64,000 nt of DNA from Candidatus Calditenuaceae archaeon HR02 (lineage in GTDB: Archaea > Thermoproteota > Nitrososphaeria_A > Caldarchaeales > Calditenuaceae), in contig BEHE01000007.1 in NCBI GenBank assembly GCA_002898395.1, positions 9,048 through 73,047 on the forward strand, written 5' to 3'. The notes below the pieces were generated by a model. The model did not search any database, was not told where the DNA came from, and was given only the letters and a program-made list of their open reading frames with translations. A program made the translations under genes and the position numbers. The stretch's first letter is position 1. Each line of letters starts with the position of its first letter. Shown piece by piece: positions 33,954 through 34,225 of this stretch.

Positions 33954-34188
33954 ATGAAAGTTTTAGACAGCAGAAGAGAAGAGCCGGAAGAGTTTAGTCC
34001 ATTACACGGCAACAAAGTGTATATGATTACTCCCACATCGGCCACGCCCGCACATACGTTGCATACGACGTCATTGCCAGATATCTAAGGTATAAGGGGT
34101 ACACGGTCTTTTTCCTGATGAATATAACGGATGTCGATGATAAGATAATTGATCGGGCGGCGGAGGAGGGTGTAGCTCGTATAAATAT
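33954..34188 (+). pseudogene. cysS: Cysteinyl-tRNA synthetase 5' fragment, frameshifted and 3'-truncated
   Basis: Frame A reads [24 protein letters not shown]. After a gap that is not a multiple of three (the YVCGxTVY block is missing), the next frame reads [49 protein letters not shown]. This is the class-I HIGH region of CysRS. Similarity ends near 34185, directly upstream of the adh promoter. Confidence 0.65.
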
Positions 34189-34189
34189 A

Positions 34190-34225
34190 ATTTATTTATA
34201 CGAGCAGATTTATTTATACGAGCAG
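34190..34225. repeat. Perfect 18-bp tandem duplication (ATTTATTTATACGAGCAG x2) at the cysS-fragment/adh junction
   Basis: Read directly from the sequence. It is adjacent to the TATA-like sequence tataaatata. Confidence 0.9.

Follow-up and report, generated by a model that had tools for sequence, protein, structure and literature searches.

A Frameshifted cysS 5′ Remnant at the Right End of an HR02-Specific Insertion in the adh Promoter Region Is Probably a Passenger of the Inserted DNA

The adh Locus and the HR02-Specific Insertion Block

The stretch of Candidatus Calditenuaceae archaeon HR02 DNA analyzed here (64 kb; hereafter, the window) contains an intact adh gene on the plus strand (34234..35367), whose product is a Zn-dependent alcohol dehydrogenase with the Pfam domains ADH_N and ADH_zinc_N, 100% identical to the HR02 protein and 92–93% identical to the proteins of relatives. 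An earlier reading of this DNA, made from the sequence only, had proposed that synteny be compared with relatives. The comparison showed that a winged-helix (wHTH) gene is followed by adh after 35–36 nt, without cysS, in six related loci (L081–L085 and the outgroup L141). In a more distant relative, and at L142 and L143, this spot is taken by other genes, cysS not being among them.

In HR02, blastn homology to L081–L085 breaks at 32024 and picks up again at 34227. The intervening 2,202 nt (32025..34226) form an HR02-specific insertion block; the relatives have just 15 nt (CCCTACGTTTGGATT) here. The GC content of the block, 47.2%, is below that of every other 2.2-kb window tested (mean 52.9%, sd 1.7, minimum 48.0%). 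No integrase-family matches were found among the ORFs of the block, no Rfam families were detected in it at E ≤ 1, no repeat is common to its two ends and it is not flanked by a target duplication. The block is foreign-looking, mobile-element-rich DNA, a mosaic of mobile and decayed sequence whose components are described below.

The cysS Remnant

The sequence-only reading had seen, in two frames next to adh, the N-terminus of cysteinyl-tRNA synthetase (CysRS) with its HIGH signature. Database comparisons agree. By tblastn and profile alignment, part A of the remnant (33954..34025, plus strand) corresponds to about CysRS codons 1–25, and part B (34019..34172, plus strand), in the other frame, corresponds to residues about 32–85, including HIGH. 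With E. coli CysRS as a tblastn query, residues 2–25 align with 33954–34025 and residues 31–89 align with 34016–34192 in a different frame (combined E = 1.5e-17). The best match of the joined two-frame peptide is TIGR00435, the cysS equivalog (E = 1.8e-23), and the alignment of this peptide with a profile of 116 intact CysRS N-termini (E about 1e-36) contains a single gap of exactly 6 residues (fvCGpt). The HIGH signature, at about 34025–34057, is kept and aligns to the HiGH columns of the profile.

As read from the DNA, the fvCGpt gap is due to a 25-nt deletion with a 7-nt microhomology, GTATATG (34019–34025), at its edges; these same 7 nt are the overlap of parts A and B and mark the deletion. 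The missing YVCGxTVY block and the frameshift that had been noticed earlier are accounted for by this 6-residue gap and 25-nt deletion. Demonstrable cysS homology stops at 34172 (EEGV). We considered whether coding homology runs on into the palindrome and repeat that follow and rejected this, the extension gaining only about 2 bits against the profile; the end of similarity, previously placed at about 34185, is corrected to 34172.

Both cysS-homologous segments are free of in-frame stops. The ORFs of the remnant are 44 and 39 aa long, compared with about 470 aa for a functional CysRS (472 aa for the intact cysS of aigarchaeote L004). A tblastn search of the 64-kb window with full-length CysRS matched residues 2–89 only, the KMSKS loop and the anticodon-binding domain being absent, and returned neither an intact cysS nor further cysS pieces. 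Thus, of the features of a functional CysRS, HIGH is present, while an uninterrupted ORF with (Y/F)VCGPT and the KMSKS/C-terminal domain is lacking. A sequencing error hiding a long ORF had been deemed unlikely before, and rightly so: once the 25-nt gap is mended, a stop is still reached at 34235–34237, and there is no more cysS in the window. Judged by its sequence, the remnant is a non-functional, frameshifted and truncated 5′ piece of cysS. It is an ordinary, unannotated gene remnant and not a lost essential gene.

A TATA-like box, TTATTATATAAA (33918..33929, plus strand), can be read from the sequence, centred about 29 nt 5′ of the ATG of the remnant. This spacing agrees with the AT-rich peak found window-wide at −28 to −30. 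The box is presumed to be the original cysS promoter, carried in with the fragment. The GC3 of the fragment falls at the 18th percentile, which is not significantly atypical, and its GC is at the 5th percentile only; since the GC3 deviation is not significant, its use as proof of foreign origin was dropped.

Other Contents of the Block

The left boundary of the block is crossed by a 56-aa ORF, HRbin02_00837 (32001..32171, minus strand; from the ORF list), which exits the insert there and may be a second truncated gene 5′ end. A metallophosphoesterase was considered for this ORF because of a suggestive GDTHGD motif and was set aside as no more than a lead, support from Pfam, NCBIfam and PDB being absent.

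On the plus strand, the small ORF p110 (HRbin02_00839; 33391..33742) is accompanied by a zinc-ribbon C-terminus (IRCPRCNTKLRNKSRR, followed by a stop) that lies in another frame after an (AC)n run, and p110 is therefore probably frameshifted, as far as can be told from the sequence. Just 7 homologs of p110 were found among 1.84 billion representatives, one of which, P0364, has an intact CxxC...CxxC tail. Two further p110 copies, HRbin02_00037 and HRbin02_01221, are present in HR02.

Between p110 and the cysS remnant, the segment 33754..33917 holds a MITE-like element of 144 bp (33764–33907) with perfect 14-nt terminal inverted repeats (GCGTGTCGAAAAAT). The element is flanked by a 10-bp direct repeat, CTTCGAGAGA, at 33754–63 and 33908–17, which was read from the sequence and which we interpret as a target-site duplication. 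The terminal inverted repeat occurs in just two copies (0.17 expected by chance); it is not a dispersed repeat, being absent elsewhere in the window and in the compared loci, and no other copies of the element itself were found among the loci compared.

p280 and Its 3′ RNA

The block also encodes p280 (HRbin02_00838; 32407..33249, minus strand), a TasR/IS110-like protein of 280 aa that is 100% identical to the HR02 protein and whose fold matches those of TasR and IS110 enzymes. It shows the domain set by which TasR is defined, a RuvC-like domain at its N-terminus, a coiled coil and a Nop-like helical C-terminal domain; it is intact and keeps all invariant acidic residues of its family. The family is multi-copy in aigarchaea (582 matches, those among them that carry names being from Aigarchaeota only) and is missed by Pfam: none of 43 family members matches PF01548 (DEDD_Tnp_IS110) or PF02371 (Transposase_20) at E ≤ 10. 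A p280 profile search of PDB sequences likewise gave no IS110 match. The p280 paralogs of HR02 are at most 88% identical, and in at least 10 assemblies one member of the family occupies the same fixed locus. P0274, which is p280-like, and P0360, which is p110-like, are carried by one or more ENA contigs of 1,932 nt.

There is no invariant Ser in the conserved columns of the p280 family. S140 alone is nearly invariant and lies in the coiled-coil helices, and the loop 223–229 is variable and of low confidence. An equivalent of the IS110 catalytic serine is not conserved in the p280 C-terminal domain, the correspondence to S241 of IS621 having been drawn by eye and not by structural alignment. 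A viral origin of p280 was also considered and rejected: neither a single-protein nor an alignment query retrieved relatives from IMG/VR, and there was no PHROG match.

A structured RNA candidate lies directly 3′ of p280 (32273..32406, minus strand), in a region conserved with L140 at the DNA level. The consensus structure obtained for it by RNAalifold has an outer stem, an internal loop that is symmetric and AT-rich, an inner and a terminal hairpin, and a tail rich in C and T. In the alignment, 91% of cells are paired versus 34–50% in slid controls, with 9 compensatory pairs versus 0–5. A covariance model of this RNA, when searched against 327 kb, produced matches exclusively beside p280 homologs. 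Each of the four distinct p280 copies has on its 3′ side one conserved stem-loop unit, with two loop segments, and no array. The two loop segments are TATA-like and semi-conserved across copies, not variable.

The Right Junction and the adh Promoter

The native TATA-like element of adh, CTTATTTCC (32016..32024, plus strand), is conserved in relatives, where its centre is about 28 nt 5′ of the adh TTG; upstream of start codons in the window, the AT-rich peak is at −28 to −30. The sequence AGCCTTATTTCC is identical in the window and the outgroup L141, and ACCCTTATTTCC is found in L081–L085. In HR02, this element now lies directly left of the insertion, 2.2 kb from adh.

The 18-bp tandem duplication that had been reported just before adh is indeed exact: two copies of ATTTATTTATACGAGCAG, each containing TTTATTTATA, occupy 34190..34225 (plus strand) at the right end of the insert. 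The earlier reading had overlooked that the 13-nt core occurs a third time, inverted, at 34175–34187. Together with the first direct copy, this inverted copy makes up a perfect 31-bp palindrome, GCTCGTATAAATA-TAATT-TATTTATACGAGC (34175..34205), which starts 2 nt past the end of cysS homology. The 13-nt TATA-containing motif is thus present at the junction in three copies, one inverted and two direct; it is not a dispersed repeat, being absent elsewhere in the window and in the compared loci. The palindrome is flagged as a terminator-like hairpin with a T-rich tail, located between the remnant and adh, and a role as terminator is equally conceivable for it.

In the second repeat unit, the TATA-like run (34209–34218) is 27–30 nt 5′ of an in-frame GTG at 34243 and 18–21 nt 5′ of the TTG at 34234. 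The GTG is specific to HR02, relatives having AAA or AGG at this position. Since the insertion separated adh from its native TATA-like element, the TATA-like sequence of the repeat probably serves as a replacement. Judged by this geometry, the junction repeat is probably the current adh promoter, and we infer a shift of the adh start to the GTG at 34243.

Search for the Parent of the Fragment

No close parent of the cysS fragment was retrieved from the databases searched. The protein database yielded just short partial CysRS entries, with identity of at most about 77% over part of the query; among the matches listed, the best full-length identity was 63% in GTDB genomes; and in JGI metagenomes, searched with the query minus its HIGH and DDKII stretches, the best identity was 62%. 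Over genomes and metagenomes together, the best full-length matches listed are 56–63% identical to the fragment. Across the 134 intact cysS loci with which the insert was compared, neither p280 nor p110 had a homolog, and there was no DNA match beyond cysS itself. The full-length cysS of L004 sits in a different, unrelated gene neighborhood. The closest relatives of p280 are its HR02 paralogs (79–88% identity), which suits an intragenomic as well as a foreign source. The fragment could have come either from HR02’s own cysS locus or from a foreign genome.

Discussion

The cysS fragment is the right-hand end of the HR02-specific insertion and therefore came from elsewhere. The earlier reading had interpreted the junction as a scar of recombination or insertion that destroyed a cysS copy. 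The scar in the adh promoter stands; the destruction of a cysS copy by an event at this place does not, relatives having no cysS at the locus. As far as the sequence comparisons go, cysS was never resident at the adh locus, and the locus gives no ground for thinking that HR02 lacks CysRS. Two familiar categories do not apply either. The fragment is not an att-site remnant, that is, a target-gene duplication at the edge of an element, for there is no integrase, there are no end repeats and the block is flanked by the wHTH gene and adh instead of cysS. Nor is it a unitary pseudogene decayed in situ, for relatives have no intact ortholog at the syntenic position.

We consider it quite probable that the dead cysS 5′ remnant is a passenger at the right end of an HR02-specific block inserted into the adh promoter. 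In the most economical reading, a stretch of a donor locus would have been copied or captured into a break in this promoter, both mechanism and donor being surmised. In the donor, a mobile module would have been situated just 5′ of cysS, and the copied stretch would have ended inside cysS. The remnant carries the 25-nt microhomology deletion, by which the YVCGPT block is lost and the frame shifted. At the junction, the threefold 13-nt motif looks like a scar of repair, template switching or slippage, and the second unit of the repeat, at about −28 from the GTG at 34243, has probably taken over as the adh promoter. Captured with donor DNA, the fragment would therefore be a passenger without aminoacylation function.

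The same arrangement could have arisen if an RNA-guided p280 had moved itself and flanking donor DNA into the TATA-rich adh promoter, with the cysS piece as transduced flank. An intact, multi-copy p280 that keeps its family-invariant acidic residues and has the fold of RNA-guided DNA enzymes, the conserved structured RNA that always accompanies it, and the coincidence of TATA-like loop segments with an insertion site that is a promoter all speak for such a course. We nevertheless find it unlikely. The loop segments match the junctions at 8 of 13 positions, against a background that averages 7.4 (95th percentile, 9), and RNA-guided targeting of the adh site was rejected because they match neither the junctions nor the 13-nt motif above background. 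About 250 nt of the block lie to the left of the conserved p280 and RNA unit and about 970 nt to its right; stopping short of both boundaries, the unit does not define the ends of the block. The lack of a conserved equivalent of the IS110 catalytic serine, the family member fixed at one locus in at least 10 assemblies and the absence of a flanking target duplication also argue against mobilization by p280. In the boldest form of this idea, p280 with its one stem-loop RNA would stand for a branch of TasR/IS110/Nop5 that is archaeal, chromosomal and not yet described, that recognizes promoter-like DNA and that carried a cysS donor flank into the adh promoter, which we regard as unlikely; if true, an RNA-guided element would rewire a host promoter and transduce host gene fragments.

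The remaining explanations appear weaker. HR02 is a short-read MAG co-assembled from seven metagenomes (Kato et al. 2018, PMC5877337), so that co-assembling short reads of several samples and strains could have produced, as an artefact, either the 2.2-kb block or the two small lesions, the deletion of 25 nt and the duplication of 18 bp; p280 and p110 belong to repeated families, repeats provoke misassembly, and the proteins of the insert are found in just one assembly. This is very unlikely, given that the block is bordered on either side by sequence syntenic with relatives and two independent chimeric joins would therefore be needed to restore colinearity exactly. The HR02 p280 paralogs, moreover, are too divergent for assembly collapse, and lesions such as an exact tandem duplication of 18 bp or a 25-nt deletion with microhomology at its edges are typical of biological origin. 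We give hardly any credence to the notion that a resident cysS 5′ of adh was destroyed on the spot by recombination or insertion: the remnant does retain a promoter-like box and a start codon, and its truncation falls exactly at the repeat-rich junction, but the six related loci, outgroup included, have a 35–36-nt wHTH–adh gap without cysS, L004 keeps its full-length cysS in a different neighborhood, and the remnant lies inside a compositionally atypical block with mobile-element genes. It is just as improbable that the remnant works as a small CysRS-derived N-terminal peptide, or as a leader by which a captured cysS promoter drives or regulates adh. Its ATG and the TATA-like box at about −29, the stop-free homologous segments and a second small ORF (34118–34237) whose TGA overlaps the adh TTG could be cited in favor of a function. 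Yet neither small ORF turned up anywhere else in about 15 billion proteins, the remnant lacks the CGPT block that binds Zn as well as KMSKS and the anticodon-binding domain, relatives share the TGA/TTG overlap, which is part of native adh, and a strong hairpin with a T-run separates the remnant from adh.

On its own, the cysS fragment matters little, and it is not to be read as loss of CysRS in HR02. It serves as a marker of a recent event in which mobile-element-rich DNA was inserted and split the HR02 adh promoter. In an archaeon whose promoters are of the leaderless type, the locus is a tidy natural example of a promoter that was displaced and probably replaced. The p280 family with its RNA is a more interesting lead than the remnant and merits a study of its own.

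Comparison with Known Systems

The p280 module resembles TIGR-TasR systems (Faure et al. 2025, PMC12045711; Xu et al. 2026, bioRxiv 10.64898/2026.09.09.750476) in protein length (280 aa vs. 292–294 residues in solved TasR chains) and in its RuvC, coiled-coil and helical C-terminal architecture. Its downstream RNA, with terminal stems and two loop segments of about 11–13 nt separated by an inner hairpin, is similar to tigRNA. However, the p280 RNA is one unit and not an array, with semi-conserved TATA-like loops in place of variable spacers, and box C/D motifs are not established for it; the p280 genes are chromosomal, multi-copy in Aigarchaeota and absent from IMG/VR; and sequence-level similarity to p280 is absent (12–13% identity). 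In the published surveys consulted, Tas systems come mostly from viruses and CPR bacteria, and one of these surveys sought an archaeal IS110-like lineage close to Nop5 and did not find it. From the bridge-RNA recombinases of the IS110/IS1111 group (IS621, ISCro4), the p280 family is set apart by the lack of a PF01548/PF02371 match and of a conserved C-terminal serine, by an RNA with one internal loop where bridge RNA has two, and by a conserved unit whose ends do not match the insertion ends.

As a whole, the locus is reminiscent of gene remnants in strain-specific insertions or islets. Here, too, what is left of a housekeeping gene is a truncated and frameshifted piece next to genes of mobile elements, with an internal deletion bounded by a short direct repeat; the block around it is compositionally atypical, and sister genomes lack it. 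Unlike in such cases, no donor copy or intact parent was identified for the HR02 fragment, and the block ends without a recognizable integrase/att signature and without a target duplication. The locus can also be compared with promoter replacement by IS-borne or hybrid promoters. It differs from that situation in that the candidate adh promoter is the junction repeat and not the terminus of an element; it is alike in that an insertion has parted a conserved TATA-like element from the start codon, and in that a new TATA-like sequence is found at about −28 from an in-frame start, the distance that is correct for such an element.

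An insertion upstream of adh

HR02 is an aigarchaeal metagenome-assembled genome (MAG), for which seven bioreactor metagenomes had been co-assembled (PMC5877337). The adh of the window and a 280-aa ORF upstream of it (p280) each match an HR02 protein at 100% identity. The usual surroundings of its adh gene (34234-35367, + strand) were established by comparison with adh loci of five relatives (L081-L085; adh 92% identical in protein and ca. 84-85% in nucleotide sequence) and of an outgroup (L141; adh 80%). A winged-helix gene precedes adh by 35-36 nt in 6 of the 6 loci. In blastn alignments, homology of the window to the relatives stops at 32024 and restarts at 34227, and HR02 carries 2,202 nt (32025-34226) in place of the relatives' 15 nt, CCCTACGTTTGGATT. 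Since the outgroup shares the compact layout, the block is, judging by synteny, a gain of HR02 and not a loss in the relatives. Its GC content (47.2%) is below that of every other 2.2-kb stretch of the 64 kb (mean 52.9%, sd 1.7, minimum 48.0%).

In two loci of a more distant Calditenuaceae-like lineage (L142 and L143; adh 75%), the same winged-helix-adh gap houses PIG-L and GFO/IDH/MocA oxidoreductase genes (3269-6000). As these genes are unrelated to the HR02 block, the spot seems to be a recurrent insertion point. No cysS is present there in L081-L085, L141, L142 or L143. The sequence-only reading had proposed that a resident cysS copy was destroyed at this position; the lack of cysS at the related loci and the compact layout of the outgroup argue against this, and the fragment is the right-hand end of the insertion.

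The cysS remnant

The remnant (33954-34172) is preceded by a TATA-like box (33918-33929) ca. 29 nt upstream of its ATG. In a tblastn search, residues 2-25 of E. coli cysteinyl-tRNA synthetase (CysRS) matched 33954-34025 and residues 31-89 matched 34016-34192 in a different frame, as expected for the two-frame N-terminus described from sequence. The joined peptide scored highest with the cysS equivalog TIGR00435 (E = 1.8e-23) and aligned with positions 2 to 82 of a profile of 116 intact CysRS N-termini (E ~1e-36) with a single gap. This gap comprises exactly six residues, the conserved fvCGpt; the first reading had reported the YVCGxTVY block as missing. The first segment closes with the codons GTG TAT ATG and the second opens with GTA TAT GAT, the two sharing GTATATG (34019-34025), and 25 nt are needed to restore YVCGPT; the lesion is therefore probably a 25-nt deletion between 7-nt direct repeats, typical of slipped mispairing. 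Taken alone, the remnant lies at the 5th percentile for GC and the 18th for GC3, and its composition is less decisive than that of the whole block.

No other cysS sequence was found in the 64-kb window by tblastn, and the window contains no tRNA genes. Among its other RNA genes are an archaeal RNase P RNA (8651-8949, - strand; RF00373, 156.8 bits) and a 23S rRNA gene (20952-25457, - strand) that is 4.5 kb long against a 2,987-nt model. The latter contains a LAGLIDADG homing-endonuclease ORF (21998-22639, - strand; PF14528, E = 3e-11) and thus at least one intron.

Junction repeats and the adh promoter

Similarity to cysS had been thought to end at about 34185, at an 18-bp tandem duplication. 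The duplication is exact (34190-34225), but the homology already ends at EEGV (34172); extending the CysRS profile alignment into the repeats gains only ~2 bits, and this extension was rejected. Overlooked in the first reading was an inverted copy (34175-34187) of the 13-nt core TATTTATACGAGC, which forms a perfect 31-bp palindrome with the first direct copy and is followed by a third copy. Elsewhere in the window the core is absent. Its three copies, one inverted and two direct, stand right where cysS homology ends and look like the product of joining by template switching or slippage. An att-site duplication was also considered and rejected: the block has no integrase, no flanking repeats and no intact cysS at its opposite end.

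Among the 44 gene starts of the window, AT-richness peaks at -28 to -30 relative to the start codon, a position that fits TATA boxes of archaeal transcripts with a short leader or none. In the relatives, a conserved CTTATTTCC is centred ca. 28 nt upstream of the adh TTG. This element is intact in HR02, where it abuts the insertion on the left, 2.2 kb from adh. TTTATTTATA occurs twice at the right end of the insert, and the distance from the second copy (34209-34218) is 18-21 nt to the TTG (34234) and 27-30 nt to an in-frame GTG (34243). This GTG is the fourth adh codon (34243-34245), which is AAA or AGG in relatives (L081 10010-10012, L141 6010-6012). Because it lies ca. 28 nt downstream of the second TATA-like run, it is a candidate new start, and the adh start has possibly shifted by three codons. 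The repeat thus probably now supplies the adh TATA box, which is the weakest part of the explanation that we prefer. Alternatively, adh could be read through from the cysS-remnant promoter, or the 13-bp hairpin and the T-rich tail behind it could shield adh from transcription that starts there.

Contents of the block

An annotated 56-aa ORF (HRbin02_00837; 32001-32171, - strand) starts within the insert and extends past its left boundary, ending in native DNA. It carries VVGDTHGD, which resembles metallophosphoesterase N-termini, but the truncated metallophosphoesterase start that this hinted at found no support in Pfam, NCBIfam or PDB searches. If it were real, truncated gene 5' ends would bound the insert on both sides. 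A conserved structured RNA candidate (32273-32406, - strand) and p280, a 280-aa ORF (HRbin02_00838; 32407-33249, - strand), follow, and then p110, a 110-aa ORF (HRbin02_00839; 33391-33723, + strand, within a feature at 33391-33742). The zinc-ribbon tail of p110, IRCPRCNTKLRNKSRR with its stop, is in another frame past an (AC)n run and in frame in the homolog P0364, so this copy looks frameshifted at the run. Short p110 homologs occur at two more HR02 loci (HRbin02_00037 and _01221). Another p110 homolog (P0360) and a p280 homolog (P0274) lie on contigs of equal size, 1,932 nt (that of P0360 from ENA); the size match by itself suggests a putative recurring p280-p110 pair. Between p110 and the promoter of the remnant is a 144-bp MITE-like element (33764-33907; 33754-33917 with flanking repeats), whose 14-nt terminal inverted repeats, GCGTGTCGAAAAAT, are perfect and which is flanked by a 10-bp direct repeat, CTTCGAGAGA; no further copies were found in the window or any fetched locus. 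The palindrome and tandem repeat (34175-34225) complete the block.

The p280 family comprises 582 database homologs, the named ones being from Aigarchaeota or unclassified Nitrososphaerota MAGs, with at least five paralogs in HR02 and four in Ca. Caldarchaeum subterraneum; many copies are on 1-3 kb contigs. p280 itself matches nothing in Pfam, NCBIfam, PHROG or the PDB sequences, and none of 43 family members matched the IS110 and Nop models, even at E <= 10. The 130-140 nt directly 3' of p280 are conserved in 4 of 4 distinct fetched copies (the window, L140, L144 and L154). A tRNA-Glu gene (L140 4551-4627) is situated ca. 370 nt upstream of the L140 p280 copy, and a tRNA-Pro gene (L144 5320-5395) ca. 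1.3 kb downstream of the L144 RNA. The RNA folds into an outer stem, a symmetric internal loop of two AT-rich segments (~11-13 nt each), an inner hairpin, a terminal hairpin and a C/T-rich tail. Across the four distinct sequences, 91% of cells are paired (34-50% with slid partners), with nine compensatory pairs (0-5 in slid controls) and several G-U pairs. Its covariance model matched only beside p280 homologs in 327 kb.

Origin of the block

No close parent of the cysS fragment was found in the protein database, GTDB species genomes or metagenomes. The protein database yielded only short partial CysRS entries, at most ~77% identical across part of the query; the best full-length identity was 63% in GTDB genomes among the matches listed, and 62% in metagenomes with a query designed to avoid ultra-conserved motifs. 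Short N-terminal CysRS ORFs (60-128 aa, e.g., P0053, P0092, P0063, P0076 and P0117) are common among the protein matches, some of them within contigs as long as 84-390 kb, and unrelated genomes may therefore carry truncated cysS 5' pieces too; some short entries may be contig-end partials or split gene calls. The cysS of locus L004, taken to be from a related aigarchaeote because window ORF 18411 has a 65%-identical ortholog there, is normal (472 aa), 56% identical to the fragment and set in an unrelated gene neighbourhood. No p280 or p110 homologs occur at any of 134 intact cysS loci. The nearest p280 relatives are HR02 paralogs (88% and 79%, both partial), the best non-HR02 protein being 66% identical. 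With no close fragment parent, yet HR02 paralogs nearest to p280, the donor could be another HR02-lineage locus or an unsampled genome.

We consider it likely that a donor stretch, running from a mobile module through the 5' part of cysS, was captured or copied and joined in where the adh promoter had broken. The junction repeats would be the scar of joining, the cysS piece would stay as inert passenger DNA, and the repeat would take over as the adh promoter. Mobilisation driven by the element, with transduction of its flank, is improbable: the ends of the conserved p280 and RNA unit differ from those of the block, and no guide-target match was found for the p280 RNA, whose loop segments match neither insert junction above chance. 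Since, moreover, one family member keeps to a single fixed locus across at least 10 assemblies and the family is absent from IMG/VR, we stop short of attributing the move of the block to p280 and treat this as a lead. Still less probable is an assembly artefact, because both flanks are colinear with relatives. Decay of cysS in situ, which synteny contradicts, has very little to recommend it, and the same holds for a functional peptide or leader, which conservation does not support: the two small ORFs were found nowhere else among ~15 billion proteins.

Comparison with known systems

As a gene remnant, the cysS fragment belongs to a known kind of object, of which it is a new and unremarkable instance. 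Of the defining CysRS features it retains HIGH and lacks a continuous ORF, the CGPT block, KMSKS and the anticodon-binding domain. Its setting is less ordinary: the insertion separates a conserved gene's start codon from its TATA-like element, falling exactly between them, leaves adh with a plausible substitute promoter, and bears a TasR/IS110-like gene and RNA pair missed by current profile libraries.

The AlphaFold model of p280 (43-sequence alignment; confident, pLDDT 90.6) combines an N-terminal unit that is RNase-H/RuvC-like with a long helical hairpin and a C-terminal domain of helices. A Foldseek search of the PDB with it retrieved only TIGR-TasR (9mty) and the IS110-family bridge recombinases ISCro4 and IS621 (E 1e-6 to 1e-4). 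Invariant acidic residues of the family include D7 (in FYCDVHRK), D48 and D93. IS110 enzymes use a serine nucleophile, whereas, on our reading of its conserved columns, the p280 family appears to hold no conserved serine there. Stem-loop tigRNAs have terminal stems, two ~10-nt spacers and an intervening loop able to form a hairpin (PMC12045711; bioRxiv 10.64898/2026.09.09.750476). The p280 RNA has this architecture, with stems, two loop segments and a hairpin between them, but it is a single unit and not an array, and its loop segments are semi-conserved and TATA-like where tigRNA spacers are variable.
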